From the NCBI GenBank assembly GCA_016763735.1, contig JAESTE010000006.1:778-64777 (forward strand): DNA of 64,000 nt, written 5' to 3'. A model generated the notes under the pieces. The model was not told the DNA's origin and made no database searches. It worked only from the letters and a program-made list of their open reading frames with translations. This stretch comes from Nitrospinaceae bacterium (GTDB taxonomy: Bacteria > Nitrospinota > Nitrospinia > Nitrospinales > VA-1). Each line of letters begins with the position of its first letter. Position 1 is the first letter of the stretch. Positions 6,201 to 49,805 of this stretch are shown here, in pieces. Made by a program: the position numbers and the translations under genes.

Positions 6201-7155
6201 GGGGCGGGTCATCGACAGCAGCCACGTCATCGAAGACGGGTCCGGGGTGCCGGGCCCGGTACAGATCGCCATCTCCTACTCGGAGGACCGGGTGCTAGAC
6301 GACCTGTTGAACCAATTGGCCACGTCGGAGGCCTTCAGCTGGAACCTCACCCAACTGCAGTTCAGTACGTTGTCGGATCAGGACCTGGACGCACACATCA
6401 CCACCATGGAGACCGACCGAATCAATTCCATTGACAAAATGAAGCTGGGCACAGGAGCGTACGCCAAGATCATCGCCGCCGCCAAGGCCCGGATCGCCGC
6501 CAACGTAGCGGCAGCCCGCAAGGCCATTGCCAAGAGTCGCAGTGACATCACCCACTCGATTGGGCTGAACCTGGCGATCGCCAAGTTGGACCACAACATG
6601 TCCAGGGTGGTGGAGCAGCTGGTTGCCTTGGGGTTGCTGGGCGACGAAGAGCAGGCCAACGGGACGGTGCAAGAGAAGAGGCTGGACGCCATCATCCAGA
6701 GGTTCCTGGACTCTGGCAACCCACACAAGTGTGGCTTCCTGTCGTTCCTGTGCGACATCTTCCATTCACTGTTCGGTGGCATCTTCGGTGCACTGTTCGA
6801 CGGGATCAAGAACTTTATCTTTATGGTCATCATGCTGGTGCTGATGGTGTTCGTGGGCAAGATCATGTTCAAGAAGTGCATGAACCACCACAGCAGCGGC
6901 GGATCAGGAGGCGCCACAGGCGGACCAGTCATGAACTACACCCCTTGGTCGCCGCCACCGGCCACAGCCGCAGCCCCGCTCAGCACAGAACAGATCCATG
7001 GCCCGCCCAAGATCACTCGCGTGGACGGGACCGTGGAGGGCGATCCAGGGGAAGGCGCATCACTTCTCGCCAAGGATCCAACAGCTCCTGCTACCGGCGG
7101 GTTCATGGAGATGCTGCCCCTCCAAGACAGCGCTGACATTCACTTTGATTCTTAA
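3220..7155 (+). CDS. large type I envelope-like glycoprotein (possible fusion protein)
   Basis: Track ORF 3199..7155 begins with GTG. The first ATG is at 3220 (taccATGa). Signal-like SVHAAVCICWLSVLLGIHL. Large ectodomain with many N-x-S/T sites. Two long helical/heptad stretches at about aa 200-370 and 1040-1130. TM segment IKNFIFMVIMLVLMVFVGKIMF. Pro-rich cytoplasmic tail containing PTAP (7078-7089). Confidence 0.6.
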   Translation: MTIGKSIASVHAAVCICWLSVLLGIHLTEGFEIISQVSSTEVVNGNSRLVHRATVRCTQDDTGTPNIITFQDANSGTARTVTFLCEQPSYRYGNFKTEYIPEAQYPVISRVCLVHVHTNNSVLKTDSGGDADNGVQQPPFRRRLLGTGGGDYDDTLLDPAVVRPGARRLLLSNQAINGIGVLLPRAKDLICTFGGCHNGLQDLKQAMAIIRARLDKMTVQFGTMTTELDKNRLFDQDVLRRDEMTADQIGFIQQATLRTQGVLSGLNDDIVDLVTIQDAYANSTNRNFAALKAQVSANANLSRTEWNATVNFMTETTRRFYEIVHRIGGVTRQVTSIEVLLMSMYKQVEMRRSVISLFHEVSTVATPIATTPFLGYLGEAPYTEAQLNALGNRNSARRVASVYLERTVLRGGTDYWAQWINLTYACDPRYIIQNIVPFLSVEALFGSIGPGGCYSGSPAAPWTCNCVILVETEECLVTSHPSRRFPWSWPVNTTYLLPMNPGSCGSGDDLVPGCQSKCTLPIVHRAPLVLDNRVGVEAYMSGLCSGSDGDVALPDVSATATVPPAKVRIYSMLYGTYSDLTLDPAVAGSDVCSGEFAVEHRAGQNEALFLGYHVYYMWLLMYQRGVSTWIPEVEELLMGKVASNLYFREVPFDVDAKYQQTHRCTEFAFARTTSTKLPVYVDILNSVQTSMQVTVGTQLIQGPLTASPVTSSHRISIALNGLTSGGNVTVTTAIDLSNNVVNVLPGLFRRVGLWRGPTNLESTWDVPGEQLCPGELPQSRAACMNYISQGANWTGVTDSSPITIEEWKSNYHAYFNPHNLGDSPSSYRRQLFTSGTQATCSGSYDIDGTPIATTTSENFWCEILRNYDVSTVGADQEEMWFKPRAFAYTTTVEVPGGSFIQRLTSFCPSSLRVVETAGDVHVELNTTVPELITVRIKVTSRDLPSDPACVFHDQDDTMSIIKPFRLDIPFSALCSPYMLNVRPVDSTQWCYGVEGRVIDSSHVIEDGSGVPGPVQIAISYSEDRVLDDLLNQLATSEAFSWNLTQLQFSTLSDQDLDAHITTMETDRINSIDKMKLGTGAYAKIIAAAKARIAANVAAARKAIAKSRSDITHSIGLNLAIAKLDHNMSRVVEQLVALGLLGDEEQANGTVQEKRLDAIIQRFLDSGNPHKCGFLSFLCDIFHSLFGGIFGALFDGIKNFIFMVIMLVLMVFVGKIMFKKCMNHHSSGGSGGATGGPVMNYTPWSPPPATAAAPLSTEQIHGPPKITRVDGTVEGDPGEGASLLAKDPTAPATGGFMEMLPLQDSADIHFDS

Positions 7156-8258
7156 CGCGCGGGTTTTACTTTGCTCAGCCTCGAGACCCTCCCTGCCACA
7201 TTCTGTGCCCTCCTGTTGGTGCAGAACCACCCGACCGCCACCACGATAAACGTGGCCAGTGCCCCCGAGATGATAGCCAGCGCCCACATGGAGGTGTTGC
7301 TGTTGACAGGCGACGACGGTACGCGTACCACATGCACCGCGTTCAGGTCGTGTGCGCATTGCAATGAAGTGTAGTTCCACACACATATTCCGTTAAAGTG
7401 TCCGGCACATGCCCCCGCGCTGTAGGCGTTCGAACACCCGCCCAGGTGTGGGTCCACGTCACACATACGGTCCGACCCAGCGTTGCTCTGGCACCCGTCC
7501 AGTTGGTAGCAGATGTTTAGGCACTCCGAGTCGTCGTCCACACACGGCGCCCCCATCACCATGGCGTAGGCATTGTTGCACCCTTGTCGCCAGCTCTCGT
7601 CACGGGCCAAGGTGGTCACGGGTGCCGGGTGGCACAAGAACAGCTGATTGTCAGGCACACACCCCGGGGTGCTGGCACACTGAGTAGGGTCGAGGTCAGA
7701 CCACCCACAGTCTTCGTTGGACGCAGACAGACCGTAGCACGACTGAGTGGCCTTGCGCCACACACACCCGGGCGTGGACTCGCAGTAATTCATGGAACGG
7801 AAGGACGGACACATCTGTGCGTACCGTGGCGTGCAGTACCCCTGGATGCTGTCCCACTGGCACCGTGGGTCCGGGGGAGGAGGAATCATGTCTGTGTCCC
7901 CGTTCATCACCACCCCCAGGCAGTCCACGATCGAGGAGAAGGGCATGCTGTACACCGACGGGTGGCGGGCACGGCACACCGAGAACCAAGGGTGAGACGT
8001 GTTGGTGGCGTGACACACGTCCTCGTAATCGTCCCACTGGCACTCGACGCCGTGTGTGCAGCGGGTCCAGTCCAGCCGCGCGGAGCAGTCGTCTTGGGGA
8101 AACACACACACCCCAGTCGAGGTGTACGCGCATTCAGGGTGCAAACGACACAGTGCCGGGTTGTCTGAGAAGAGGGCGCATCCGGCGGCCGCGTGCGTGG
8201 ACACGGGTAGCCACAAGGTCAGCCACACCGCACCCCACCACCAGTGAAGAGGGGTCAT
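7152..8258 (-). CDS. cysteine-rich type I membrane glycoprotein
   Basis: The track ORF starts with TTG at 8264; the first ATG is at 8258. Signal peptide LHWWWGAVWLTLWLPVSTHAAAG. Repeated C-x(5-7)-C-x-W...C units (ECQWDDYEDVC, RCQWDSIQGYC, GCVWRKATQSC, GICVWNYTSLQC). TM WALAIISGALATFIVVAVGWF with a basic tail. Its stop codon overlaps the stop of the convergent gene within TTAA (7152-7155). Confidence 0.65.
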   Translation of the reverse strand: MTPLHWWWGAVWLTLWLPVSTHAAAGCALFSDNPALCRLHPECAYTSTGVCVFPQDDCSARLDWTRCTHGVECQWDDYEDVCHATNTSHPWFSVCRARHPSVYSMPFSSIVDCLGVVMNGDTDMIPPPPDPRCQWDSIQGYCTPRYAQMCPSFRSMNYCESTPGCVWRKATQSCYGLSASNEDCGWSDLDPTQCASTPGCVPDNQLFLCHPAPVTTLARDESWRQGCNNAYAMVMGAPCVDDDSECLNICYQLDGCQSNAGSDRMCDVDPHLGGCSNAYSAGACAGHFNGICVWNYTSLQCAHDLNAVHVVRVPSSPVNSNTSMWALAIISGALATFIVVAVGWFCTNRRAQNVAGRVSRLSKVKPAR

Positions 8259-8319: not shown

Positions 8320-11300
8320 CTACACGCGTGGCGCCAACCTCACACCAAAGTATTGTTCACACTTTCGTTCTCTCAGTTCCTTCAAGTCGGACCTCATCCA
8401 TGTGTCCAGTGCAAAGGTCACGTAGTCGTCAGGGAGGGTGTCCATGTAAATCTTCTGGGCGGCTGACATGACACGGATCAGCGGGGTGGCCAACTTGTCC
8501 ATCTCTTGCTGGTAGTTGAGCCGCACCGCACTGAACTTGGCGCCCAGTATGTTCATCTCCACGTCGGCGTCTTCGTCAAAAGGCTGGAACTCATCCTCTT
8601 CCTCGTCCTCGGCGACCACGTTTGGATCGAATGGTGACTCCGGGACGACACGAAGCGGTGATTCGTGTGGAGGGACGACAGGAGGCCAGTTCAACACACC
8701 AGAGGCGTCGGGAAACTCGGAGGGAGATGGCCCCTTCCGTTCCAGTTCGGCGAACACCGATGACATGGGTGCGACGGGGGCCGCGAAGGCAGGTCCGTAG
8801 GGCTTCTCCTCCGGCTGAGGGTCTACCACTACTGGGAGCGCCACGTGGAACAGTTCGTCCCTGTGGACGTCTGGCATCAGGTCGTGCATGTACTCGTCGT
8901 CAAAATTGTTGGCGCCGGACTGAGACGCACGCATTGGTTGGACCGCGCTCCGTTCCATGTACAGTTCCAACAGACGCAGCGCTCGGCCTTGGACCAGCAG
9001 GTATGCCTCGGGGTATACCTTGACACCCAGGTGCGTCGGGTCGTCCAGGTCGAACACATCAGGGACGGTCACCACGTACGCGTGGGTGAGGGCCGGCGTA
9101 CTCACGACCTGTTGTACTTCAGGATCGGCGTTGTAGTTCATGGGACTCGTCAGGGGAAGCCCGTCAACCTCCTCTTGGCTTATGATCTGGATCAACCCGT
9201 CCATGGTCATGCGCCAGAAGAGCTTGAAGTGGTGCACGTCCTCTGCGTTGGCGGCGTCCCGAGGCAAGTAGAAGTTCTCTGGGTGGGCCCACACGTTGGA
9301 CTCGGCAGGGTCCACCTTCTCGAACGGGGTGGACTTCTGCAGGATCTTGGGGAACAGGCCCACCTTCTTCGAGTGGGCTTCTCTCCATGCCTTATAGATC
9401 TTGCTGCTGGGCTCGGACGGGGCTTCTGACCACCCCACTGTCTGTTCGGCGCGCATCGGAGCGTCCAGCTTCTGTACTGGATCAGGCAGGGTGTAGCGTC
9501 GTTGGTGCGTAAAGGCCTCTTCGTCGTCAGGCATGTTCCTGAAGTAGTGGGGGGCAATCTGCCGTAGAGAGAGGCGGTTGCCCAGGAACACGTCTCCGGT
9601 GGGCAGTTGATGGCACCTGCCGCCCACCAAGGGGAGGTAGTGATCTGCGTCGGAGGGCGAGGTCCCAAACGCATTGGCAATGGCGACGACCCGGTTCTTG
9701 CGCTCTTGGTCGGTGTCGAGTGCGGGGAGGAGGGTTTTCATGGCCAGGCTTACGGCCAGCTTCTCCTTGGCCAGTTCCTTGGCGGAAGGGTTCACGACGG
9801 TGGTTTGTGCCAGCCAGTGTGCACGCGGGTCGTAGGTCCAGTGTGCTGTGTTGTACCGTCTCCCGCCCGAGTCAGCGTGCTTGGAGGCCGAGACCATCAT
9901 GCGGACGGTCCACAGGAAGACCTCCCGCGGCGGGGGCAGCGGCTCAGGGATATGGTTCTTCTCGTCGACGTACTCTGATGCGACGTGCTTGGGACGGTAC
10001 GCCCGCCCCACGAACCACTGGGCAGCTCGGTTGGCCACTGCTGCCGTGTGCGAGGGCACCCTGATCAGCGACGTGTACCGTTCCAGTACGGGGAACAGGA
10101 ATTGCCAGGGCACTTTCTTGTGAAGGTCCAGGTAGTCCCAATAAATGTACATGAGGCTGGGCAGCTCGGTGTTGAACATGGCGTAGCTCGTGGGCACGGT
10201 GATCTTCTCCACGGACTTCAGTTTGGCACGCCGAAGCATTTCCTTGGGCGGCGGCACGTCAATCGTAAAGTCTGGCATCTCGCCCGTCAGCGACTTGAGC
10301 AGCTTCTTGTTGCCGTACAACCCCTTGCTGTGGGACACCGACACAAACCCCAGCAGCATGGAGTGGTAGACCTGCATGGCGGTCTGTGCGTTGGCAGCAC
10401 GGCACGGGAACATCCGCATCAAGTCCAGGGCTTCCATGCGGGTGGGCATCTGCAACGTGTCGACTTTGTACTTGCGGCCAGGTCCAGGCCCGGCCACGAG
10501 CAGGGACAGTTGGGCGTAGCTGTGCTTGATGAGGTCGCTGGTCACGCACCGGTCTGGGGCCGGGGCAAACGAGGGCATGACCCGTGAGCCGCGTACGAGC
10601 TCGTGTGGCAGGATCTTAGACATAAACGAAAGGAGGTTCCTGCTTCTGGTAATAAACGGCTTCATGTTCTTCCGGACGTGGGCCTTGAACGCGTCAAACC
10701 TGCCCCACATCGTACTGCTTGCCATGATTTCGTTTCGGGCCTGGATGAGGAGATCTCCGGCGTGGAACTTGGAGTCCCCCGCCCACATCGACACGATCCT
10801 GTACAGAGCGATGAATCCCCGCATGCTGGGGTTCGCGGTGATTGCGTGTTTGAACATGTCCATCATTTTGTCTTGCGATTGCGCCGCACGTGCACGGGCC
10901 CAGAGACCGTGTTGGGTGATCATCTTCAGGGAAGACACGTAGAGAAACTTGGCGCCGCGCTTCATGGCACTGGTCACCAGTTTCCTGGCCTGGTCGGGTG
11001 GCAGCACACTGAACATGATCAACGTGTCCACGTCGTCCAGGGTGTGCCCGCTGGGGGCAAACCTGGTCCGTGCCTCCTCGTCCAGACGGGCCTGGACCAG
11101 TGCGGCCCAGGTGCGCATGAACCGTGCGGGTTTCATGGCCACCACAAAGAGCATGGTGTAGACCATGACGTAGTTCACGATTGTGTCCCATTTGGGGTCG
11201 TTGATGCGGGTGACGGCGATGCGGCACACGTTGCCGCCCATCAGGATCGCAGGGGAGTAGAACAGGGTGCCCCTGTGTTGGTGCACAATCGACTCGACCA

Positions 11301-16482: not shown

Positions 16483-16586
16483 GGTGTGACTCGTCCGCAC
16501 AGACCCAATGAATCGCGTCGGTTGTATTTGGTAGTCGACTCGCCCGTGTTTAGGACGGCGGCACTTCTTTTGTAGCTCTGCCCAAC

Positions 16587-18131: not shown

Positions 18132-18584
18132 CGAGGCCATCTCTGTTTCTATGCATGGACACGCCGCCGACGCACTGGAGTCTGCCGGATTCCCGTGTGT
18201 GTGTGCCATCACCAAGGTCCACCTGGCCACGTCCAACGACGCCACCGCACTGTGGGCCCCGGACGACGACACGCAGAACCCAGGAGGGGTGTGGCTGATT
18301 GTGAGTGCGGCACAGTTCTCGCACTGGAGGCAACAAACCGCGTACGCCAGTCATGGTGCAACAGCTGTATTCAATGTGTGCAGAGGCACAGGCAAACCGG
18401 CTACAGTGTACAGACGTATCGGCAGCGAGACACGACGGTCTATGGCGACCGGGTCCTCTTGGCGCTCCTGACGCTCCTGGCCTCGGGCAGCCTGACGTGG
18501 ACCCATCCACCGGAACACGGGCGTGAAGGGCACACCGTGAAGCCATTTTGCTTGTTGAATACACACTTGTGCATCGTGCAGTAG
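18100..18584 (+). CDS. candidate small spliced membrane protein (speculative)
   Basis: Exon 1 is 18100-18300 (67 codons, G/C-rich third positions) and ends exactly at GTGAGT (18301). An 83-nt candidate intron ends at tgtgtgCAG (18383). Exon 2, 18384-18584, continues in an open frame that encodes a hydrophobic span (RVLLALLTLLASGSL). The gene would overlap the 3' ends of both neighbouring genes. Confidence 0.3.
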
Positions 18585-19648
18585 CGTATCGAAGGACTGA
18601 GGTTGCGTACACACGACTTGCACATCGCCAGGCACATGGTCTTGGTGTCGTAGCGGAAGGTATCCGCATCGGTGCCGATCCCCACCTTTAAACACCCTTG
18701 CACAGCGCATTCGTCCCAGCGGGCGTCGCGGCAGTCTCTGCACAACAGCAGCAGGTAATCAGACCCTGCGCTGATCACCACGGCGCAGTCCACACACGCG
18801 CCCAGCGGCACGTCCATGGCCTCGGCGATCTCCAGCAGACTGTTCAGTGCCCGGTGGAACGCAGCGCGACGGAAGGTCAGGTCGGTCAGGGCGTAGACGC
18901 TGTCCAGTCCCGCTGGGCCCAACTTGTCCCCTTGTGCGAGGACACGGTCCTCAGTGCACAGTCTGGCGTCCAGTGTGACAAAGGTTGGGGTTACCAGGCG
19001 GCAAGACGTGCGCTTGCCATGGTTCCCGAACCAACATTCCTTGGCCCCCGCGTTCAACATGACGGAGTGGGCCTGGCAGTATTTCGTACCGATGGTGGCA
19101 CACAGCTGGCACACCTTCATGTTGGGATTGTTCTCCGTGCAGAAACTGGTGTTGGACGGGCAGATTAATTGGGGACAGTCGCTTATGTCACATGGCGTAG
19201 GCACCACTGCACAGTCGGTGCACAGCCTGTGGTCGTGGTCGCAGAACACCTTGCGCGGTTCTTCCTCCATGTACCGGAAGCACAGGTTGCACTGGTAGGT
19301 GTCGACAGACGGGTCGGCGGCCGCAAAGGCAGACAGTATCGACCGTACAGATGCCTTCAGCCCGTGCACGACAGCGCCCAGCTCGACAGCCGTAGGCAGT
19401 TTCGCCACCGACAGGGGTCCACAGGTGGGTGACGAGGCGGTTGAACGGACGATGGGTTCGGTGTCGGGCACCTTGACTTCTTCTTGTGACTTGGAGTTGT
19501 GCGACAAGGTGGTATGGTCGTCGTCAGGGTCGGGCGGGGACAACATCTCCACGTCGGGGTCGGTCCTGAGCCGCTTGGCACTCCATGGGACCTTGCTGTG
19601 GTCTTCCTGTTGTCTCGGTTGTTTGCCAAGTGAAACCTTCATCGACAT
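18440..19648 (-). CDS. RING-like / cysteine-rich zinc-finger protein
   Basis: The track ORF extends to 19711 across the promoter motif cluster. The ATG at 19648 (MSMKVSLGKQ) lies just downstream of that cluster. CNLCFRYMEEEPRKVFCDHDHRLCTDC fits C-x2-C-x12-C-x3-H-x2-C-x2-C. Many further CxxC/CxxxxC pairs follow. Confidence 0.55.
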   Translation of the reverse strand: MSMKVSLGKQPRQQEDHSKVPWSAKRLRTDPDVEMLSPPDPDDDHTTLSHNSKSQEEVKVPDTEPIVRSTASSPTCGPLSVAKLPTAVELGAVVHGLKASVRSILSAFAAADPSVDTYQCNLCFRYMEEEPRKVFCDHDHRLCTDCAVVPTPCDISDCPQLICPSNTSFCTENNPNMKVCQLCATIGTKYCQAHSVMLNAGAKECWFGNHGKRTSCRLVTPTFVTLDARLCTEDRVLAQGDKLGPAGLDSVYALTDLTFRRAAFHRALNSLLEIAEAMDVPLGACVDCAVVISAGSDYLLLLCRDCRDARWDECAVQGCLKVGIGTDADTFRYDTKTMCLAMCKSCVRNLSPSIRYCTMHKCVFNKQNGFTVCPSRPCSGGWVHVRLPEARSVRSAKRTRSP

Positions 19649-19687
19649 GGACGGTTGGAATTGTCCCCGAGAGGATCGGCACACAGA

Positions 19688-19722
19688 GTCGACCATCAAA
19701 GTCGACACCACACAGAGTCGAC
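19688..19722. promoter_or_regulatory. cluster of three GTCGAC(T) motifs upstream of the RING-like gene
   Basis: GTCGAC at 19688, 19701 and 19717. In gene sense this reads GTGTCGACTCTGTGTGGTGTCGACTTTGATGGTCGACTCTGTGTG, 40-75 nt upstream of ATG 19648. Confidence 0.5.
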
Positions 19723-19749: not shown

Positions 19750-20385
19750 TTAAAGCAAAAACAGGTACTCCTTGAACTCCCGGTATTGACGAGTCAGTCC
19801 TTCTTCGAGTATACGTCTGACGTTCATACTGTCGTAGTTGGGCCACAACAGCGCCTTGAGTGTGTCGAACTTGCGGTTCTTCAGCGCCATCATGGTGCAC
19901 TCTTCCCCTACCGGACACCCCACAACCCTCAGCCAGCTTAGGAAGGGTGTGTGCCCATTCGCCGCCGCAACGTCAAAGTCTCCTCCAATGAACCGTACAC
20001 CTCTTGCGTACAACCACTTTGCAATGTGAAGATGCCCTGCCCGGGCCACCGCTCCCCTCATACTCCATTCATACCGCGAGTCGACTTTGAACATGTACTC
20101 AACTACGTCCAGGTGTCCGTGCCTGGCCGCGGAGACGATCATGTTTCCACTGCCGGCCCAGTTACTGTGCCAGACGAGCTTGAGCAACGGTGGATACCCC
20201 AGTTTGTATGCGGTGTCAACTGTGCTGTACTTCTCCAGACAGTAAGGGTCCATGAGCAGGTGGTCACTGGTGCACAGGAAGGTCTTGATGTAGTGTGCCA
20301 CGTCCCGGCCCACGAGCAGTGCGACGTACGCCATCCCGTGTCTCTTGGGGGTGAACAGGCTGTCATCCCGCTTGTGTTTCGGCAT
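19750..20385 (-). CDS. ankyrin-repeat protein
   Basis: Degenerate ANK repeats: AARHGHLDVVEYMF, AVARAGHLHIAKWLYARGV, AAANGHTPFLSWLRVVG. The first ATG after the promoter cluster is at 20385 (MPKHKRDD). The track ORF start at 20433 lies inside the GTCGAC cluster. Confidence 0.7.
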   Translation of the reverse strand: MPKHKRDDSLFTPKRHGMAYVALLVGRDVAHYIKTFLCTSDHLLMDPYCLEKYSTVDTAYKLGYPPLLKLVWHSNWAGSGNMIVSAARHGHLDVVEYMFKVDSRYEWSMRGAVARAGHLHIAKWLYARGVRFIGGDFDVAAANGHTPFLSWLRVVGCPVGEECTMMALKNRKFDTLKALLWPNYDSMNVRRILEEGLTRQYREFKEYLFLL

Positions 20386-20419
20386 CTTTTTGTGGCAGTT
20401 GAAGTTGTGAAGTGTGTGA

Positions 20420-20454
20420 GTCGACGCCCACACAAAGTCGACACCAAAGTCGAC
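20420..20454. promoter_or_regulatory. cluster of three GTCGAC(T) motifs upstream of the ankyrin gene
   Basis: GTCGAC at 20420, 20437 and 20449. In gene sense this reads GTGTCGACTTTGGTGTCGACTTTGTGTGGGCGTCGACTCACACAC. It forms a roughly 50-nt block about 90 percent identical to the block upstream of the next gene (21178-21250). Confidence 0.5.
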
Positions 20455-20463
20455 ACGTGGTAT

Positions 20464-21177
20464 TTAATTAGACGGAATGTCGTTAACATACTGCGACTGT
20501 CCGTTCGCCGGCTCCTGTAGAATCTCAAGAACCTGAGCGACTGGGTCTGACCGCAGACGTTCATCCTCAACCAACTGTTCGAAAAGCCGGCGTTTTCCAA
20601 CGAATTGCGTATTCTGATCCTTTGTCAGTGGGAACAGTTGATAAAGACGCCGAAGGTCACGTACGAGAACATTCGCGTCCCTGTTGGCGTCTTGTCTGTC
20701 CACCAACCGGATTCTTGCCAGGTAATCCATCACACTCTCTCGCTTGAACGATGGCTCCTCTACGTCAAGGGGTTTGACCTGCGCCAGCACCCGTCGAGCT
20801 TCACACGCCATTTCCTCGAGCAGAAGGTGGCGATTAAATCGTCTGTGTTGCTCCTCTGTTAGCGGGAACATACGTCGGATGCCGCTTACGACTTCCTCGT
20901 GGTTCTTGCCGCGGAAAAGCCCGACGATGGGTGCGTCTGACATCTCCGTGTCAGTTTGAGTACGATCATCAGGTTCCATAGAGTGGTATTGCACATCTGA
21001 CACACGTATTCGTCCGTACAGAATATCCTCAATCTCGTCCAGATCGCCGTGCGTGATAATGTGTTCGATGGGGTTGTCGCCCAGAAGGTTGCACCGCGGT
21101 TGGCCGGCTTTCCAATAGAGTGCCGCGACGACAACTGCAGCCGATACCAGCCAGAACACAAGTGTCGACCTGTTCAT
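20464..21177 (-). CDS. signal-anchor (type II) membrane protein, unknown function
   Basis: ATG at 21177 gives MNRSTLVFWLVSAAVVVAALYWK, an N-terminal hydrophobic anchor. Internal duplicated motif FPLTEEQHRRF / FPLTKDQNTQF. ATTAAA (20463-20468, minus sense) overlaps the TAA stop. Confidence 0.6.
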   Translation of the reverse strand: MNRSTLVFWLVSAAVVVAALYWKAGQPRCNLLGDNPIEHIITHGDLDEIEDILYGRIRVSDVQYHSMEPDDRTQTDTEMSDAPIVGLFRGKNHEEVVSGIRRMFPLTEEQHRRFNRHLLLEEMACEARRVLAQVKPLDVEEPSFKRESVMDYLARIRLVDRQDANRDANVLVRDLRRLYQLFPLTKDQNTQFVGKRRLFEQLVEDERLRSDPVAQVLEILQEPANGQSQYVNDIPSN

Positions 21178-21206
21178 GCGGTAGATTGAAGGTGTGAGGT
21201 GTGCGA

Positions 21207-21323
21207 GTCGACACCCACACAAAGTCGACATCTGGGTCGACGTCGACTTGGGGGTCCACTCCACACTCCACCAAAGTCGACCAACATGTCGACTTACGAA
21301 GTCGACATCGAAGGCATGTCGAC
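21207..21323. promoter_or_regulatory. divergent promoter region with eight GTCGAC motifs
   Basis: GTCGAC at 21207, 21224, 21236, 21242, 21276, 21288, 21301 and 21318. The region lies between the minus-strand ATG at 21177 and the plus-strand ATG at 21286. The last three copies fall in the first codons of the plus-strand gene. Confidence 0.55.
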
Positions 21324-23076
21324 TCATGTGCATCGTGCCTTGTCATTGCGCCACATGGACCGCTCCGAGCTGAAACGCAGGGTGCCGTACTCGATCAGGG
21401 GACCCCAGAAGTACGTCCGGGAGTTGCACGAACGCTACGTCAACACGATACGTGCGAACTACCCTGCCCTGGCCGACGTGACCTCTGTCATGGTGTACGA
21501 CACGTCCCAGATGGATTGCCGGTCACACATCCGTGCCTTGCCGGTGCGTGCGCTGGTCAAGTGTATCACCACCAACACCCGCTTCCTGTTCATCGTGTTG
21601 GGTAACGCTGCCGACCGCAACGTCTCGGTGTGGGGCTGGCTGGACATGCAGTGGTTCACCTGGTGTGTGCTGGACGCCTCCCTCAAGACCCAGCTGGGGG
21701 TACGCTCCAACCAATGCACCAAAAACCCACCCGTGCACACGTCGTTGTGGCAGACCAGCATCGCCACCAACCTGTCGCTCCCCACCGACTGGAAACCCCC
21801 CAACCAACCCATGGACCTGGGTACCTTGGACTTTGTCTTGCGTCAACACATCTTCTGGCTGGGCTGTGTGCGCAGCAAACTACCCCTTCCGTCTGCTGCC
21901 CTGCTGGCCAACGACGACGCCGTAAGAGAGGACGAGTGGGCCGCCACCTTCCTGTGCTACATGGCCAGCTACGTCTACCGTGTCCATGCTCCTGCCGCCT
22001 GGGAAGCCTTTGTGTGGCGCTGGAACGTGCTGGAACGTCAACTGTTCCGCCTGCGTCTGAGTCGTGCACACCGACACAGAGTGGTGCCCCTGGCGTCCCA
22101 TATCCTGCGCACCAACCTCAAGAGGTACCGAGGCGTGGCGGCTCCGGTCGTAGGGCAGCGTGGTCTGCACATCCCGGCGTTCAGTGTGCCCTTTGAAACC
22201 GTGCCGTACCTGGTGTCCCGTCGTCTGGTGCCCTTGAAGCAGGGACAAGCACTGTTGTCCCCCATGCAGCTGGAAGACTTGGTGGTGCAGAGGTTCCAGC
22301 TGGTAGACCCCTTCGGAGACGGACGCCCTCACTACTCCACGTGGGACTTTGCCCAAGACAAACGCTTCGCCGGCCTCAAGCCTCACCTGCAGAAGCTCCA
22401 GCTGGCAGTACTGGGCACCTCTCCCTCTGAGTCTACCCCCGAGATTGCCCGTCCGCCTCTACAGAGCGCGCTGCACTTCACCCCCTGCATGGTGGCCATC
22501 CACAAGAAGTGGCCTCACTTGCGCTTTGGTCCGCGTCAACTGTACGGCAAGGTCATGTCGCTCCTGAAAGTGTCGTTGCCCTACCTCCAGGGTGTGTGGA
22601 CTGGGCCGTGGCGCAGACACTACGAGAAGAACGCAGAGTCCGAGTCACGCAGCATCGTGGCCTTTTGGAAGAGCCAGCGCAAGCACGTGGACACCCGCGC
22701 GGCACTAGACCCTTCGCATGCCGGCCCTACGTGTCGTCAGATGTGTTCGGCCCACCTGTGCCCCTTTGCCACGGCTACTGACCCACTGGAAGCACAAGAC
22801 TCGGGACGTGCCCGGTGCAGCATCTCTATCGGGTTGCGCAAGGCCGGAGACATTACACACGTGTTCCACAAGACCACTGTATTGAGGCAAACGTTCAGCA
22901 GGCAAGCAGTGGCGGTCGACAAGAAGCACCATCTCGCCGACGAACTGGCCCGTGCACCGCCCACCCGTCCCGTTCCACCCCCTGTGCGCATGATCAAGCG
23001 GATGCGTCGCACGGTTACTGTAGACTACGACGTGAACGAGATGGACGAGAAGTCATCGAATGAACGAAAGCATTGA
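21286..23076 (+). CDS. eukaryotic/archaeal-type DNA primase large (Fe-S) subunit-like protein
   Basis: ATG at 21286 (the upstream part of the track ORF is promoter). HFTPCMVAIHKKWPHLRFGPRQLYGKVMSLLK matches the PriL signature HFPPCM...HLR..GRQQ..LFLK. About 80 aa later, GPTCRQMCSAHLCPF matches the ..C...GCPF Fe-S ligand region. References are yeast Pri2 and human PRIM2, recalled from memory. Confidence 0.5.
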   Translation: MSTYEVDIEGMSTHVHRALSLRHMDRSELKRRVPYSIRGPQKYVRELHERYVNTIRANYPALADVTSVMVYDTSQMDCRSHIRALPVRALVKCITTNTRFLFIVLGNAADRNVSVWGWLDMQWFTWCVLDASLKTQLGVRSNQCTKNPPVHTSLWQTSIATNLSLPTDWKPPNQPMDLGTLDFVLRQHIFWLGCVRSKLPLPSAALLANDDAVREDEWAATFLCYMASYVYRVHAPAAWEAFVWRWNVLERQLFRLRLSRAHRHRVVPLASHILRTNLKRYRGVAAPVVGQRGLHIPAFSVPFETVPYLVSRRLVPLKQGQALLSPMQLEDLVVQRFQLVDPFGDGRPHYSTWDFAQDKRFAGLKPHLQKLQLAVLGTSPSESTPEIARPPLQSALHFTPCMVAIHKKWPHLRFGPRQLYGKVMSLLKVSLPYLQGVWTGPWRRHYEKNAESESRSIVAFWKSQRKHVDTRAALDPSHAGPTCRQMCSAHLCPFATATDPLEAQDSGRARCSISIGLRKAGDITHVFHKTTVLRQTFSRQAVAVDKKHHLADELARAPPTRPVPPPVRMIKRMRRTVTVDYDVNEMDEKSSNERKH

Positions 23077-26617: not shown

Positions 26618-26631
26618 AATACACGTGTATT
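26618..26631. terminator. 14-bp perfect palindrome between convergent stop codons
   Basis: AATACACGTGTATT fills the gap between the TAA stop at 26610-26612 (plus gene) and the minus-gene stop at 26631-26633. The 3'-end or terminator role is only inferred. Confidence 0.25.
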
Positions 26632-27191
26632 CAATGGTTGATGGAGTCAAGAAGCCCATCTTCTAGTTGGTCACGCTTCTTGGAGGTGCAGCGTACGTAG
26701 ACGCCGTATCCAATCGCGAAGCAGATCAACAGGATCACCAGCGCCAAGGTAAGATGCAGGAGCGTGTTGCTGCAGACGGCAGGGGACGACGGCAGGGAGG
26801 GGCAGATCAGCGAAGGGACGAGCAGACAGTTGTTCACGCATTGGTTGTGGTCCACAAAGATCTTGCGGCTGGTGAGAGGGGTGATGTCGACTCCAGGAGA
26901 CGACGCGATGTTGCCGGACCAGCACCCAAACCTGTCCATCCCATTGATGAAGCTCTTCAGGGCAGCCAAGTTCTCTGCGGCCAGAGCTTCGTGCGGTGCC
27001 TGGGTCAGACACAGGTCGCACGTCCGGTTGTATGTACATTCTCCCATGGCCGACAGTACGTGGTCGATGCTTGGGTCCAGCATGCGGCAGCACAGGCTGG
27101 TGTCTACAGAGAAGTGGCACGTGGCGCCGTCGGCCTTCATGACCCGGCCCATCAACAGCAAGAAGGCGACCAGATAAAAGAGACCTGGCAT
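26631..27191 (-). CDS. type I membrane glycoprotein, unknown function
   Basis: 186 aa, aaaccATGc context. Signal MPGLFYLVAFLLLMGRVMKADG. Cys-containing ectodomain. TM LLHLTLALVILLICFAIGYGVYV. Confidence 0.6.
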   Translation of the reverse strand: MPGLFYLVAFLLLMGRVMKADGATCHFSVDTSLCCRMLDPSIDHVLSAMGECTYNRTCDLCLTQAPHEALAAENLAALKSFINGMDRFGCWSGNIASSPGVDITPLTSRKIFVDHNQCVNNCLLVPSLICPSLPSSPAVCSNTLLHLTLALVILLICFAIGYGVYVRCTSKKRDQLEDGLLDSINH

Positions 27192-27230
27192 GGTTTGCGA
27201 GAGAGTTTGATGGCCAAGTCCTTTTTTGGG

Positions 27231-27264
27231 CGGGAAAGGGTTTTGCGGCCGGGAAAGGGTTTTG
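27231..27264. repeat. two direct copies of a 15-nt unit CGGGAAAGGGTTTTG
   Basis: Copies at 27231-27245 and 27250-27264, separated by 4 nt. They lie 40-75 nt upstream of the minus-strand ATG at 27191. Confidence 0.6.
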
Positions 27265-27320
27265 TGGGTTAAAAATACAGTGTAGTTTCATTCGTGATCA
27301 ACAATTATGGTGACATGCAA

Positions 27321-30300
27321 CTACTCACAGTCAGAGTCTGTGTCCGAGTCAATGTCGATGCCTTGTTCCTCAGTGTACAGACGGATCCTCTTGCGACTCT
27401 CGGAGTCGATCTTTACCGGCACAAAGGCCAGACGCCTCTTGACGGACCGCTCGGTGTACAACTTACGGCGGAGCTGCTGGTTCTCCTTGATGCGTTGTTG
27501 CTCACGATCCACCAAGGCATTGATCACAGTGTCAACGTTGTCCAGGCAGTTGTTGACGTAATCCTCGCGGTCCTTGCGCTCGGACAGGAGTCTGGCAAAC
27601 ATCGTCTGCTGTGCCTCGTCCACCCGCGTGTTGGCGATGTTGAGTTCCTCGACCACGGACACCATGTCTGACATGGCACCCAGCGCAGCACACTTGGGCA
27701 CCAACTCAGGGCACAGCTCGGTCACGACCACGTCCGGAGGCACCAGGTCGGTGAACTGCATCCGCGTGAGCTCGTCAAAGGTGATCTCCGTCACGATCCT
27801 CCCGTTGATGTGGAAGCGACACAGAGATGTAGGAGACAGGCCCAGGGCCACGCGCATGTTGGTGGCAAAGGCGTCGAACGTACCAATGGGGATGTAGCAC
27901 AGTCGCTTGTCCATCCTCCCCGCACAGGTCACAGTGATGGGGCGGATGCCAGCAGGGATCTTGTACAGGGGCACCACAACCACCTCATCGTCGTCTGCCA
28001 CCGTGTCGTCATCGTCCACACACTCTGCCTCGGCCACACTGACACTGTCGCTGTCGTACCCAGAGCCTTGAGCCTCCTGCTGGCTGGAGTGGTAGGAGCA
28101 GTCCGACTCGTGGTCGCTCTGGATCTCCACAGGGGAGGCAGGGGTGTCCGGCACAAAGTCGTCGTCACCGTCCAAGTCCTCCACATGGGTGATCTCCTCG
28201 TCTGTGTTGGAGGCAGGGCATGTGCGAAGACGACGCGACCTGCGCAAAGCACGCGGAGCCACAGACACCTCCTCGTCGTCACTGTCCTCCACGTCGCTGT
28301 CTGGGATCACGACGGATGCTCTGCGTGGTGAACGGCGCAGGGTAGGCACACGAGTAGGGAGAGGAGACGGTGCGCGCGACACGTCCGAGTCAGATGCCAC
28401 AGACATGTCCTCGTCTTCATCCTCCTCCTCCTCGCTCTTGTCGTCGTCAATGGAGCGATCCAAGTCCAGGTCTGCACCAGCCGGAGGAGACGTGAGGTCG
28501 TAGTCTTCGCAGGTCACGTGGGCCTTGGACAACATCTCCCGCACAGACGACTCGGGGCTGGAGGGGGAAGACGCCACAGCTGTACGCGCAGCCTTGACTG
28601 GGTACACCACAGGGTTGCTCATCTCGGTAGAGGCTTCACCCAGAGCACACGCCTTGCGCTTGGAGCAGACCGGAGTGCTGGCGGCACTGCTGGCGCTGGC
28701 GCTGGCAGACCCCACAGACGACACAGTGATGTCCTCGTCCTTGACAAAGAGCGACAAAACCTCGTGGAAGTCAGTGACGGGACGTACCCGCTCGGGGTGA
28801 TGAGCGATCGCATCCATGCACGTGTACTGCCCGTCCGCCACTTCACACAACAGAGGCGCCACGTCCGTGTTGGACATGGACTTCACCGTGGCAGGGCGTC
28901 GCTTGTAGCGCAGAGTCCCAGGGTTGCTGAACGGAACGATTGCACTCCATGCCTGCGTGCCCGCCCACACGTCTCCGACCCGATGGAGCACCCTGTGGTT
29001 GTGGCTCACCGCCATGTCCATCCCTCGCAAGGGCACACCCCACGAAGGCATACCGACCAGTTGGCGTTGAGTAGGCAGCTTCTTGTGTGCCTTCTTGTAT
29101 CCACCCTGCTCACGGTGACGAGAGGTACAGGTCTTCTTCTTGCCGTGCTCGGTGATCACCAGGCTCCGGGCCGTGCCCGCCACACGTTGAAGGCGCGGAG
29201 ACACCAGGAGACACGTACCCTGGTCGTCGCGCAGGAACGGCATGAGGTCTGCCTGGTGCACAGGAGACACGTCTGCCACCACACGCTTGTCCAGAGACGC
29301 GTAGGAGGTGTAGATGTCCATCACGCACAGCGTCAGGGCACGCATCATGTTGAGGTGCTTCATGGGTATCGGGCAGTACTTGCGGGGGACAATCACCTCC
29401 ACGTACTTGTGGCCAGAGATCCAGCCGCCTTGTGCAGAGGGAACACTGTAGGGGTCGCCTGCAGAAGGGGTGAAGGTCACGATCTGCTGCTTCCACCCGG
29501 GCACAGACACCAAGTTGGTGTTGGTCGTCACGTTGATGTAGTCGGTGTGACGACGCAGGTCATCCACGGTACGTTGAGGCCCGCCCTGGTTGCGGCGGCC
29601 CACAAGGATGGGCAGCACGGTCCAGCTGAGTAGGAAACATACCTCACGCAGGAGCTGTTCTTCGGGGAACATGGCGTGCCAGAACAAACGCTCGCCGTCC
29701 TCACGGGAGGCGAAGGGAGACGGGCTCCGGCCCATACGGGGTACGAAGGGCTCACTACACAAGACCACCACGTTGAGGGAGTCGGGGTAGAAGGCGCACA
29801 ACACCACATTGCAGTGGGTAGACACACCCACCGCCTTGAGTACCGCGATCTTGGTGGCCCAGACCCCCTCGTCAGCAGCATTGGCACACACCATGGCAGA
29901 CCAGTCGGGTCCTGCACGCAGTCGAGCCTTGATGTCGTACCCCAGACGAGCCCGAAGGACCCTGTCCTGAGGGCTGTTCACCCACACTTGGGCAACGCTG
30001 TGGTCCACCTTGGTCTCCACAGGCATGCACACAGGCACAGACTTGGGGGGGATGGACGCAGGCGAACCCAGGAAGGGGTTGACGTTGGGCTCGCGCAGCT
30101 GAGGCACAAGCATGGTGTCCTGGCTCGGGGGGTCGGACAGCAGCACCAGGGGAGTGCCCAGGGCGGGCCCATCCATGGCAGGGAAGGTGTATTCACCTAG
30201 ATCTTGGTCAAACACCGCGTCCAACAGGTTGTCGCCCATAGGAGTGGAGAGAATCCCTCCGTCAGACGGGTTCATCCCCGTAAAGTCCGCACCGATCAAG

Positions 30301-30403
30301 TCGTCCACCAAGTTACCAAATCCCTGCACACACATGAACAGTCAGCCACAGCTCCCTTTGCGTCGCGTCCAGAGCTCCTGGCACTCACCATAGCAAAAGA
30401 CAT
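27321..30403 (-). CDS. large acidic Ser/Asp-rich protein, family B paralog (spliced, two exons)
   Basis: Exon 1 is 30389-30403 (ATG TCT TTT GCT ATG). The intron is 30324-30388. Exon 2 is 27321-30323. The N-terminus (GFGNLVDDLIGADFTGMNP...PMGDNLLDAVFD), the VPVCMPVE motif and the C-terminus (IDIDSDTDSDCE) all match the 36378-37347 gene. Long acidic/Ser tracts. Confidence 0.65.
30324..30388 (-). other. 65-nt spliceosomal intron
   Basis: In minus sense the sequence reads ATGTCTTTTGCTATG|GTGAGTGCC...CATGTGTGTGCAG|GGATTTGG. Both junctions are in phase 0. The intron is at the same position as the intron in the paralog at 36381-36447. Confidence 0.65.
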
Positions 30404-30449: not shown

Positions 30450-30806
30450 ATTTGGACTTTGACTTTTGGAATTATGAACCAAAAGCCAAGTCGTCGACCA
30501 CCAAGTCGACTCAAGAATGGGAAAATTTGGACGACCACCGGAATATATCAGGATGGCCAAAATTTGGACGACCCTCCCCGATCATCCTCTTGGCCATTTT
30601 TTTGACACCACACCAAAAAGTCACAAAGAGGTGGAAAACACCGGACACAACCAGTTGAACTTTTTGTTTTCTTGGGTGGGGTGCACTTCAAACTTTTGAG
30701 AATCTTGATAAATTCCGGTGGTCGTCCAAATTTTGTCAATCCTGAGTCGACTTGGTGGTCTTCGACTTGAACTTTTCGTCACAATTCCAAAAGTCAAAGT
30801 CCAAAA
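30450..30806. repeat. imperfect inverted repeat (103-bp arms) forming a mirror-symmetric divergent promoter
   Basis: Left arm 30450-30552 and right arm 30704-30806 are reverse complements at roughly 80 percent identity by eye. Each arm carries GAGTCGACTTGGTGGTC and AATTCCAAAAGTCAAAGTCCAAA. The region is locally AT-rich. A third copy of AAAATTTGGACGACC lies in the spacer. Confidence 0.75.
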
Positions 30807-30831: not shown

Positions 30832-32669
30832 ATGAAGCGAGCAGCCGAAGAGATGGGTGCGGTGCACAACGAACGTGTGCGCAAGGCGGTGTGCCCCAAC
30901 GAACTCCATGACGACGTCGCAGGGATCGCGAGTCGTTCCTTGAACACCTTCAAGGTTACGTTGGTTCGAGCCCCCCGTGAAATCGACTCCATCCACATGA
31001 CGGCCCGGGAGTACTACATCAACGCAGAGTTTGCGAGTTTGGTACGCAGAGGGGACATCTACAGGAACGAAGACTGGGAGAGCCTGGGCGGATCCACGGT
31101 ACGTCGCTCGGTACGTCTTTGTGTGCAGCCTTCTGTGTAGAGGGACACGCACTGACACACGACACTTGTATGCATACACAGACCACGTTGTCCGACGTGT
31201 TCACCCCTGGTCTACCAACTGGAGGCATGTGTGACCCGGACATGGCTGGAATACAGACCCTCATCAACCCCTCCACGACCTTCACGTACAGGTCCCGCGC
31301 AGTGAACCGGTACGCTAACCTCACCCACGCCTTCCCTCCTGTGGCCACCCGCCCAGGCTTCAACTTGTATGCGTCCTACACCCCGCCGACTGCGGCCCAT
31401 CCACGTCTCACCCACACCCGCCTGGACCTGCACTGGCTGCGCATGGACGTGAGCGACTTCCTGTCACGCGCTGTGTTCGACACCGACGACACGTACACCT
31501 CGTACAACGTGGCGGTCAATGCCATCACGGTGGGGATCTACAAGGCGTGTCTGGCCCGTGTCGCTTCCAGTATGCACTGCCGGGGAGACCTGAACAAGTT
31601 GCTACGGGATGACGCAGATGGCATATCGGTCTTTGCCCACGCCCTTCTGCCCGCGGTGTGTCTGCCTGGCATGGATGTCGACGTCAACACAGACGTCATC
31701 ACGGTCCGTGAACCCCTGACCTCACTTGAATCCTTCTCGTTTGTCTTCGGGCCACCCAAGGATGACGACCCCTCCATGTTGCCTGGCATGCGCAAGAGGT
31801 ACACCGTCCCCCGGATCCGCCACATGGTCACACACATTGCGCTAGGCAGATGCCACGACCTGGAGGAGGTGTACACGTACATGTGCCAAGGGAAGGGCAC
31901 CCCCACCATTGCCTTGGCCACGCCCAGCTCGGCGACCGGTCCCCTGGGCGACCAGTCCAGTACAGTGATCATTGACATGCTGTTCGCCAACACTCAACTG
32001 CACGAGATGGGGTTGATCACCACGGCTGACCTGTGCCCCCACGACCCAGGCGTGGTCTTCATAGACTGTCGACTGTCCTATGCGTCTGTCGGCCTCGTTG
32101 ACTACGTGCTCTACGTCAAGTACGTCACCATCAAAGGCATATGCTTTGACCAAGGCACTCAGTGTATCCTGATGACCGTGTCCATGGACCTGGCAGCGGT
32201 GGCGTTCGAGCGGAAAGGGCAGCACATCCAACTACACGACGAAGTGTACGACAGGGTCGTCTACCGTGACACCCTCGTTACCGTGAACGTGACCTACGTC
32301 CTCAACCGACGGGTGCCGGTACACACGTCCATGGCCACCGACTGCCGCCGGTACAAGCAACACGAGTTGGGTCACCACAAGACTCTCTTTGCGTGGAAGC
32401 AGTATGGCTTGTCCATCAAAACACACGACCTGCCCTTCCCTCCCTACAACAACCCAGGCATGGTCACGAGTCGGTTCGAGACCGAGGTCCGGGATTTTGT
32501 GACCTGTGACGGCGGAGGCATGGGCTGGTTCATTGTACGCTCTGTGGCCCACCGCATTGGGACACAGAACTTGTTGGAGAGTTCCATGGACCAAGTCACT
32601 GACCCGCACACACGCAAAACACACACCTTCCCCGCTGACATCCACAACCTTATCCTGTCGTACGTGTAG
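30832..32669 (+). CDS. family A protein, paralog 1 (spliced, two exons)
   Basis: Exon 1 is 30832-31098 (ttcaccATGa). The intron is 31099-31181, with an alternative donor at 31111. Exon 2 is 31182-32669. It shares TADLCPHDPG and the C-terminal FPADIHNLILSYV motif with the genes at 40829-42748 and 42832-44310. Confidence 0.6.
31099..31181 (+). other. 83-nt (or 71-nt) spliceosomal intron
   Basis: ACG|GTACGTCGCTCG|GTACGTC...TGCATACACAG|ACC. Both tandem GTACGT donors (31099 and 31111) keep the frame. The acceptor at 31181 joins the frame of track ORF 30718..31140 to that of ORF 31119..32669. Confidence 0.55.
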
Positions 32670-40120: not shown

Positions 40121-40181
40121 ACTTGACGTGAACCCCCTGTACACATTTGAATTTACGAAAGTATTTCTCAAGTCTTCCGCG

Positions 40182-40710
40182 AAGTATTTCCTAAGTATTC
40201 GACAAGTATTCCTTCGAGAGACTTGAGAAATACTTGTTGAATACTTGAGAAATACTTGTCAAATACTTTGTACCGAGATTCTGCTGAAGTCCGATCGAGA
40301 GGGGGGGTAGGGTCTTGTTCCCCCCTAACCGACCGGTGCCTTTTCGGTGAATAAATAGGTTCACCTTTTGTGACAGCAATCAATTAACCGAGATGTCAGG
40401 AACCGTGAAACCTATAAGGTGGGGTTTTATGATATAGTCGGTAGATGATTGACTGGTACTATGCACAGTAGGACTAGTCCATCCTGGATTAATACCCAAA
40501 CTATACCCCGGGGATAAACCTATTTACCGTTTGAGAACATAGTCCCGAAAATACACCGATCGGTTAGGGGGGAACAAGACCCTACCCCCCCTCTCTATTG
40601 GACTTCATGAGAATCTCGGTACAAAGTATTTGACAAGTATTTCTCAAGTATTCAACAAGTATTTCTCAAGTCTCTCGAAGGAATACTTGTCGAATACTTG
40701 AGAAATACTT
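40182..40710. repeat. large imperfect palindrome (157-bp arms, about 215-bp AT-richer centre)
   Basis: Left arm 40182-40338 and right arm 40554-40710 are reverse complements at more than 90 percent identity by eye. The arms are built from AAGTATTTC/GAAATACTT sub-repeats plus GGGGGGTAGGGTCTTGTTCCCCCC. Weaker symmetry continues inward (40345-40365 versus 40512-40530). The element lies in the 708-nt gap between convergent genes. Confidence 0.85.
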
Positions 40711-40828
40711 GGTGGAAACCTTACAAAAACTTCAGCTCGACTCGCAACACTACGAAGTGCGAACCTCCTCAGGATGAACGCAGAGAAAAGGGGGTGCACA
40801 GGAGACTTGGGAAATTTCTCAAAAACCT

Positions 40829-42786: not shown

Positions 42787-42808
42787 GTCGACACCCAACT
42801 GAGTCGAC
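42787..42808. promoter_or_regulatory. two GTCGAC motifs upstream of family A paralog 2
   Basis: GTCGAC at 42787 and 42803. In gene sense this reads AAATGTCGACTCAGTTGGGTGTCGACATTTC, 40-60 nt upstream of ATG 42748. Confidence 0.45.
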
Positions 42809-44310: not shown

Positions 44311-44312
44311 GA

Positions 44313-44403
44313 GTCGACAGCAGGTCAAGTGAACGTTTGGGATAATTTTACATAAAACATCGACTCAAGTCGACACCCGAGTCGACTCCTAACACAAGTC
44401 GAC
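44313..44403. promoter_or_regulatory. cluster of four GTCGAC motifs upstream of family A paralog 3
   Basis: GTCGAC at 44313, 44369, 44381 and 44398, with a fifth at 44285 inside the coding start. In gene sense this reads AATGTCGACTTGTGTTAGGAGTCGACTCGGGTGTCGACTTGAGTCGATG. Confidence 0.5.
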
Positions 44404-45192: not shown

Positions 45193-45197
45193 TTAAT
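45192..45197 (-). terminator. ATTAAA hexamer bridging a stop codon and the next start codon
   Basis: In minus sense the sequence reads TGATTAAATG. TGA is the stop of the nuclease gene (45199-45197), ATTAAA is 45197-45192, and ATG starts the next gene (45192-45190). The poly(A)-signal role is inferred. Confidence 0.35.
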
Positions 45198-46813: not shown

Positions 46814-46898
46814 GGTCGACTATGAGAAGTTACACTCAGGTCACAGAGAGTCCTGTGTGACTGTCAAGTATCCTGAGCCTGACCTGTGTGTCGTCAGC

Positions 46899-49727: not shown

Positions 49728-49805
49728 CGAACTGTATACAAACTCCCTACGCGGCGTGAACTTTCTCATAATTGCAATGGAGCCCAAATCGAACCGGCGT
49801 AGTGA

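Follow-up and report, generated by a model that had tools for sequence, protein, structure and literature searches.

In herpes simplex virus TAATGARAT is a class-specific promoter word of which several copies precede immediate-early genes, and the early motif of Mimivirus, AAAATTGA, is likewise a class-specific promoter word which is conserved as an exact octamer. Both are non-palindromic, and their class association was shown experimentally. Here we describe arrays of a word differing in sequence from both, the palindrome GTCGAC with a following T, in a 64-kb stretch of contig JAESTE010000006.1 (referred to as the window), which was deposited under the name of a Nitrospinaceae bacterium. The largest of these arrays lies at positions 21207-21323.

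Palindromic intergenic motifs have been described for Marseillevirus and medusavirus. In Marseillevirus, AAATATTT is a multi-copy promoter motif of this type that is tied to a large fraction of the genes and drives expression, and that tracks no temporal class (PMC7192143). It is AT-rich, 8 bp long and found with over half of the genes, whereas the word in the window is GC-rich with a CpG in its centre and marks about a third. Moreover, Marseillevirus is a cytoplasmic-type giant virus with its own RNA polymerase, while none was recognised in the window, and the regular arrays of the window with a spacing of 12-17 bp are unlike AAATATTT. The medusavirus motif GCCATRTGAVKTCATRTGGYSRSG is located in divergent but never in convergent spacers, ~40-70 nt upstream of the ATG, and marks an immediate-early gene subset mostly of unknown function, as shown by RNA-seq (PMC8557863). 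Medusavirus is a GC-rich virus without most transcription genes for which a GT-rich motif near starts was also reported (PMC8557863), and GT-rich flanks are present at the window sites as well. In contrast, medusavirus exhibits one long copy of 24 nt per gene, the window arrays of an exact hexamer, and no protein homology was found between the window and medusavirus. Identity with medusavirus was rejected because its motif differs.

In the window GTCGAC is found 61 times, compared to 30.6 +/- 5.4 copies expected from dinucleotide-preserving shuffles (n=100; maximum 46, none attained 61). The first-pass annotation, made from the letters of the window, had described the clustering as non-random, which is confirmed, and had assumed a chance expectation of ~20 copies, which is too low given the about 31 of the shuffles. 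Its largest cluster, 21207-21323, contains exactly eight copies (21207, 21224, 21236, 21242, 21276, 21288, 21301 and 21318). Genes were modelled as ATG-started open reading frames (ORFs) with high third-position GC, resulting in about 38 genes. On this basis 31 copies fall into 5,985 nt of non-coding DNA (5.18/kb) and 30 copies into 58,015 nt of coding DNA (0.52/kb). The latter equals the chance rate (about 0.48/kb expected), so that the excess is entirely non-coding; the difference is 10-fold (binomial P=1.7e-16). A motif-blind k-mer scan of non-coding versus coding DNA gave AGTCGAC as the top 7-mer (31 versus 20, 17-fold, P=3e-27) and AAGTCGAC as the top 8-mer. The enrichment upstream of genes relative to coding DNA, on which the first-pass annotation had made its proposal of a promoter element depend, held within the window. 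The clustering is real and represents the strongest sequence signal in the non-coding DNA of the window.

The copies are confined to the 5' sides of genes. Divergent (5'-5') spacers contain 7.2 copies/kb (five of nine spacers with a site) and tandem spacers 8.7/kb (four of 15). Convergent (3'-3') spacers remain at the coding background with 0.49/kb (one of six spacers with a site; P=3.7e-5 for at most one of 31 sites), and their lone copy at 26886 falls inside a probable small gene. The two largest arrays, with eight and six sites, are located in the divergent spacers 21178-21354 and 52731-53051 and comprise one sub-array for each flanking gene. The sites are also oriented. In four tandem minus-strand spacers the core is followed by T in 11 of 12 sites on the sense strand, but in one of 12 on the antisense strand (Fisher P=1e-4); the sense-strand reading is T-GTCGAC-T-(T/C), directed at the downstream gene. 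The ATG-proximal copy is found at -36 for a RING-finger gene, -40 for an ankyrin-repeat gene, -35 for the gene of a 237-aa protein with N-terminal transmembrane segment (TM237), -37 for a primase-large-subunit-like (PriL-like) gene and -44 for the paralogue-family gene 40829-42748, while additional copies recur near -52 and -67. TATA-like boxes were not found in the motif-bearing spacers. Hence the proposal that the word is a promoter element of a gene subset is well supported by position, namely by the 10-fold preference for non-coding DNA, the 5'-only location, the orientation and the recurrent ATG distances.

Oriented sites in front of promoters could alternatively act as polar transcription roadblocks or insulators (Sal-box/TTF-I or Reb1-type) which halt read-through. 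The Sal box of vertebrate rDNA has the same GTCGAC core and is orientation-dependent, with the consensus GGGTCGACCAG in up to 10 repeats 3' of the transcription unit and one promoter-upstream copy, T0 (PMC6089867). In addition, four of the window arrays follow directly behind the stop codon of a same-strand upstream gene. Such a role is nevertheless very improbable. The window arrays are 5'-only, without 3'-end enrichment and with convergent spacers at background, and the largest of them occupy divergent spacers, where nothing reads in. Furthermore, GGGTCGACCAG is not matched: the Sal-box flanks are GG...CCAG, whereas the window sites have T/A before the core and T(T/C) after it, few showing G...C.

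Regarding the site itself, GTCGACT is present on one strand in 27 of the 31 non-coding copies versus 16 of the 30 coding ones, and GTCGACT(T/C) in 26 versus 13. The longer form put forward by the first-pass annotation, (A/T)GTCGACT(T/C)TG(T/G)G, holds in this short core; the full 12-mer is seen in four of 31 sites. Hexamer variants with one mismatch are not enriched (5.5/kb in non-coding versus 9.3/kb in coding DNA), and the five bases on each side of a site have a mean likeness of 4.0/10 compared to 3.5/10 for random coding copies. Since mismatch variants are unenriched and flanks are barely alike, it is the exact hexamer with the following T that is maintained and not a longer repeat unit. 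Tandem Repeats Finder recovers mere parts of two arrays.

The spacing is regular. Arrays consist of two to eight copies with neighbours mostly 12-14 bp or 16-17 bp apart, and in four promoters three sites form a module with a span of exactly 29 bp (19688-19717, 20420-20449, 21207-21236 and 44369-44398). The promoters of the ankyrin and TM237 genes (20386-20456 and 21178-21249, minus strand) show 83% identity across about 60 nt while their proteins are unrelated; judged from this similarity, they appear to be a duplicated cassette. The proximal sites of these two promoters, 20420 and 21207, sit within an imperfect 22-bp dyad, GTGTGnGnGTCGACnCnCACAC, which applies to two of the 31 sites only.

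Clusters of palindromes also occur in the baculovirus homologous regions (hr). These are ~30-bp restriction-site-centred palindromes within ~70-bp repeats located in separate regions, bound by the dimeric viral transactivator IE-1, and they stimulate early promoters, acting as enhancers and origins. The window shows a likeness in its dispersed clusters of two to eight copies of a restriction-site-centred palindrome along a large viral genome, and the longer dyad around 20420 and 21207 points in the same direction. That the arrays are dispersed enhancer or replication-origin repeats of the hr type is still unlikely. Unlike hr, the sites measure 6-8 bp with unconserved flanks, and they are situated directly upstream of ATGs. 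The arrays fill spacers that are very short (78-92 nt), with a fixed ATG distance, and not separate AT-rich regions. A far better origin-like structure exists at 40170-40722 (178-nt arms, fold z=-30.7). IE-1-like or baculovirus Pfam families had zero matches among the window ORFs, with 64 kb covered and the proteins being highly divergent.

An exact hexamer without mismatch tolerance is typical of restriction and modification enzymes, and GTCGAC offers a central CpG/TCGA. It might thus be the target of a restriction-modification or DNA methylation system (a SalI-type site), the arrays serving as methylation-dependent marks. We give hardly any credence to this explanation. The chance-level frequency in coding DNA indicates neither avoidance nor genome-wide selection, and restriction-modification does not predict 5'-only clustering, orientation or a fixed distance to the ATG. 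No such methyltransferase or nuclease domain was detected in the window, where the sole nuclease-like signal is a weak GIY-YIG match (48939-49727).

Sense-strand orientation and fixed ATG distance would fit an RNA element equally well. If transcribed, the arrays might act in the 5' leader via GUCGAC hairpins, as the GTCGAC copies are able to pair mutually, or via protein binding, controlling translation or stability. Two regions fold better than shuffles (21178-21354, z=-4.3; 44311-44410, z=-2.8), and at 44313, 46815 and 21286/21316 some copies adjoin start codons or run into them. However, the fold z-scores of most array regions (four of six) are non-significant with -0.4 to -1.4. Many sites create ATGTCGAC on the sense strand and hence upstream AUGs in a leader. 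Moreover, the 177-nt divergent spacer is nearly full of sites, so that both transcripts would start inside each other's arrays, and the palindromic site at 16534 is symmetric between two divergent genes. Taken together, a leader RNA element is unlikely.

We consider it probable that the GTCGAC(T) arrays function as cis-regulatory elements in promoter-proximal position, in a large DNA virus-like element of eukaryote type that is so far uncharacterised. This assumption is based on the 5'-only location, the orientation, the recurrent ATG distance, the doubling in divergent spacers and the sharp specificity. Each array would provide two to four putative sites per gene for one sequence-specific DNA-binding factor, which is probably a dimer because the core is a perfect 6-bp palindrome. 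Located roughly 35-105 nt before the start codon in fixed orientation (sense T-GTCGAC-T-Y), the arrays would allow the factor to drive or co-regulate a regulon of ~9 genes with arrays, or up to ~14 including single sites, out of ~38. We infer all three, protein binding at the sites, activation of transcription and a single expression class for the gene set. Most likely the arrays represent a virus-specific intergenic promoter motif, that is a familiar kind of element with a new sequence; the regularity of the exact-hexamer arrays is unusual, and their word is private to the lineage.

Several points weigh against a promoter function. The sites could lie within 5' leaders instead of upstream of transcription starts. 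Neither a DNA-binding protein nor a subunit of an RNA polymerase was recognised among the window proteins, with Pfam near-blank and PDB sequence searches blank, and the analysis covers only 64 kb of the genome. Due to the duplication of the ankyrin/TM237 cassette, the positional regularities rest on fewer independent cases. Furthermore, relatives from metagenomes which share four to eight genes with the window at 23-60% identity exhibit no GTCGAC arrays but GTCGAC at background, and no GTCGAC was found in the spacers before their orthologues of the PriL-like gene and of gene 45197-46813. As these relatives are all distant, the absence marks the word as lineage-specific and not as unimportant.

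Arrays with two or more sites belong to nine genes: RING, ankyrin, TM237, PriL-like, the 1004-aa gene, two paralogues, MGCTLS and the acidic 876-aa gene. Up to five further genes carry a single site, giving 9-14 of ~38 genes (about a third). The groups listed by the first-pass annotation were found at its coordinates except for the last one, which is 52800-52913 and not 52810-52923, and two of its groups, 16534 and 46815, are single copies that are each indistinguishable from chance.

On the minus strand, the RING-finger gene (18440-19657; the RING pattern was detected in its protein) has three sites at 19688-19722 (-65, -49 and -36), all with T after the core on the sense strand. The ankyrin-repeat gene 19750-20385, which has ankyrin Pfam matches, is preceded on the same strand by three sites at 20420-20454 (-69, -57 and -40); this array occupies the whole 78-nt spacer that follows the upstream gene's stop codon. 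Four sites at 21207-21247 (-35, -52, -64 and -70), which belong to the TM237 gene (20464-21177, minus strand), make up the left half of the 177-nt divergent spacer 21178-21354. Its right half consists of four sites at 21276-21323 (-79, -67, -54 and -37) in front of the plus-strand PriL-like gene with ATG at 21355, whereby the copy 21276 faces the minus-strand gene; alternative in-frame ATGs of the PriL-like gene are located at 21286 and 21316.

Two sites at 30493-30510 (minus strand; -163 and -175) are directed toward the 1004-aa gene 27321-30335 (minus) and lie in the left arm of a 118-nt inverted repeat. The right arm contains one intact plus-strand site at 30746-30751 and a degenerate GTCttCGAC, ~-86 from the ATG 30832; the site reads toward a 102-aa ORF (30832-31140, plus). 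The inverted repeat itself extends over 30451-30805 in a divergent spacer of 44% GC, with arms of 118 nt (83% complementary) and a centre of 119 nt. Both arms carry outward-reading GTCGACTTGGTG and AAAATTTGGAC(GACC) repeats, and the structure looks like a duplicated bidirectional promoter region.

Of the two paralogue-family genes, both on the minus strand, 40829-42748 has two sites at 42787-42808 (-60 and -44). The other, 42832-44310, has three sites at 44369-44403 (-93, -76 and -64) and a fourth at 44313 which abuts the ATG (-8); all sites of this array, 44313-44403, show T after the core on the sense strand. The small MGCTLS (myristoylation-type) gene 52395-52730 (minus) is accompanied by three minus-strand sites at 52800-52832 (-75, -89 and -102). 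In the same 321-nt divergent spacer, three plus-strand sites at 52866-52913 (-186, -170 and -144) point toward the acidic 876-aa gene 53052-55682 (plus). Since the distance of this array to the ATG 53052 exceeds that elsewhere, the start of the 876-aa transcript or ORF is uncertain.

Membership is uncertain for the genes at the two single copies, which are compatible with chance. The site at 16534-16539 is a palindromic AGTCGACT in a 104-nt divergent spacer, -57 and -53 from the ATGs at 16482 (minus) and 16587 (plus), flanked by the genes of a 2720-aa (minus) and a 514-aa protein (plus). The site at 46815-46820 abuts the ATG of gene 45197-46813 in a 79-nt divergent spacer. A further claim of the first-pass annotation concerned membrane glycoprotein genes, which were said to lack the motif. 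The genes it listed indeed have no copies, but the contrast is not significant, with one of seven membrane-protein genes motif-positive versus eight of the 30 remaining ones (Fisher P=0.66).

A weak signal of other words was observed within 90 nt upstream of 22 motif-less genes, where ATACA is found in 7 of 22 (0.9 expected) and TGTGTA in 5 (0.5 expected). Both are borderline after multiple testing and could represent a second promoter word. A 19-bp tandem repeat, TTTTGTGGGCGGGAAAGGG, with 2.5 copies at 27222-27268 adjoins the 5' side of the small membrane-protein gene 26631-27191.

The contig was deposited within a metagenome-assembled genome named "Nitrospinaceae bacterium" (65,708 bp, JKY23_ locus tags). 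Identical sequence (99.9-100%) is present in ENA and Logan assemblies of BioSamples SAMN07571238/245 (runs SRR5988111/120), which are North Pond crustal-fluid metagenomes (PMC6736579). These same-virus contigs (L011-L015) yield no comparative information owing to their 99.9-100% identity to the window. The start-codon context, with C at -1 in 28 of 36 and A at -3 in 19 of 36 starts, the rarity of Shine-Dalgarno-like words (two of 39 starts), the RING, ankyrin and EGF proteins and the near-blank Pfam and PDB searches indicate that the contig is not bacterial in character. The encoded proteins include a RING finger, ankyrin repeats, EGF modules, several signal/transmembrane glycoprotein-like proteins, one MGCTLS N-terminus and two giants of 2,720 aa and 2,127 aa. 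A Pfam scan of essentially all window ORFs returned weak EGF, ankyrin, PriL and GIY-YIG signals and nothing else, and five ORFs gave no match in PDB sequence searches. The window contains zero tRNAs and zero matches to Rfam covariance models at gathering threshold. Very probably the contig was mis-binned and stems from a eukaryotic virus-like element of the North Pond crustal fluid.

A poly(A) hexamer near the stop is seen in five of 38 genes; in four of these it overlaps or abuts the stop codon itself, which makes it weak evidence. A candidate intron at ~31,090-31,123, which would have spoken for nuclear expression, was rejected, as it is 30 nt long, keeps the frame and runs into a stop. Same-strand adjacent ORFs overlap in different frames by 281 nt (46893-47918/47638-48942) and by 35 nt (52395-52730/51842-52429); possible causes are overlapping genes, a frameshift or splicing that was not recognised.

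The PriL-like ORF 21355-23076 (+) has a sub-threshold Pfam match of its own (E=3e-4). A full HMMER search against representatives revealed remote relatives at 29-31% identity, and most of the homologues scanned exceed the cut-off of PF04104 (DNA_primase_lrg). By this sequence evidence the ORF is assigned as a very divergent DNA primase large-subunit-like protein. Via this ORF and protein 48939-49727, relatives' contigs (L094-L113) were obtained from JGI, Logan and ENA metagenomes, at least two to three of them from the same North Pond samples and one from a "crustacean metagenome". A contig has up to eight genes in common with the window (23-60% amino-acid identity). A syntenic block of four genes, 47638-51692, is common to the window and relatives (loci L094, L103 and L108-L112), and the best-conserved protein is the GIY-YIG-like 48939-49727 (weak Pfam match) with 47-60% identity. 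We conclude that the window belongs to a family of large DNA virus-like elements of eukaryote type that lacks annotation. This family cannot be placed because no RNA polymerase, capsid or DNA polymerase genes were recognised among the window ORFs in the Pfam and PDB sequence searches over the 64 kb.

The syntenic block is motif-less, and most motif-bearing genes are lineage-specific. By analogy, the occurrence of the motif on mostly lineage-specific genes resembles the early or host-interaction sets of other viruses, which is only suggestive. For the possible temporal class raised by the first-pass annotation, the immediate-early motif of medusavirus is a favourable precedent and the Marseillevirus motif a contrary one that calls for caution. 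Exact repeats of their own, confined to non-coding DNA, are found in two relatives. In L108, TCGG(G/C)CCGA has seven non-coding and zero coding copies, three of which follow each other in tandem every 12 bp within a divergent spacer (repeats at 3980-4302 and 9010-9513). In L109, GTCTGCAAG has 9-11 non-coding and 0-1 coding copies, arranged as direct and inverted pairs, one pair being in a convergent spacer (repeats at 6064-6492, 7381-7474 and 8558-8778). These two short contigs hint at private intergenic words as a family trait.

Searches by the word itself led to no further members. In IMG/VR, the pattern GTCGACTTTGTGTGGG gave 10 single chance matches and AGTCGACN{5,12}AGTCGACN{5,12}AGTCGAC gave 58 loci, nearly all with one isolated tandem array per contig and none with tblastn similarity to window proteins. 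GTCGACN{5,12}GTCGACTYTGTGTG matched four times in GTDB genomes and 16 times in JGI metagenomes, each match being single, with neither additional clusters nor homology. When the PriL-like ORF and the 1004-aa ORF were used in word-seeded searches, self-matches alone were returned, and IMG/VR searches with a single protein or the family alignment returned zero members of the family.

Two further structures were observed. The near-perfect inverted repeat at 40170-40722 has 178-nt arms (93% complementary) composed of 11-bp AAGTATTTCTC-type repeats and a 197-nt centre. It lies within a 708-nt AT-rich (43% GC) convergent spacer, folds as single-stranded DNA with -214 kcal/mol and could be a replication origin or a MITE-like (miniature inverted-repeat transposable element) insertion. 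Near both ends of the 17.9-kb relative contig L094 (positions 24 and 17823) a GAGGGGTACCCCTC-type palindrome is present, possibly a terminal repeat or else an overlap from the assembly.

The current understanding is not overturned by these arrays, as class-specific promoter words are expected in large DNA viruses. The deposited contig is flagged as mis-binned, being a eukaryote-type virus-like element that comes from subseafloor crustal fluid and whose relatives occur in other metagenomes. For an uncultured virus, the promoter word offers direct access to the programme of gene expression. Co-regulation is predicted for a set of RING, ankyrin, PriL-like, nuclear-signal-bearing paralogous, acidic and myristoylation-type proteins, and the GTCGAC array is a defined probe for the cognate factor. 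The differing non-coding words in two relatives hint at a quick turnover of promoter words in the family. We tentatively suggest, as a possibility we would hold doubtful at present, an unrecognised family of eukaryote-infecting large DNA viruses in which each lineage has a private promoter code consisting of its own short, exact, often palindromic word, arrayed at ~12-bp spacing in 5' spacers. The reader of this code would be a DNA-binding activator that is encoded by the virus and co-evolves quickly. If so, the turnover of the word among lineages, with GTCGAC in the window, TCGG(G/C)CCGA in L108 and GTCTGCAAG in L109, would represent co-evolution of factor and site.

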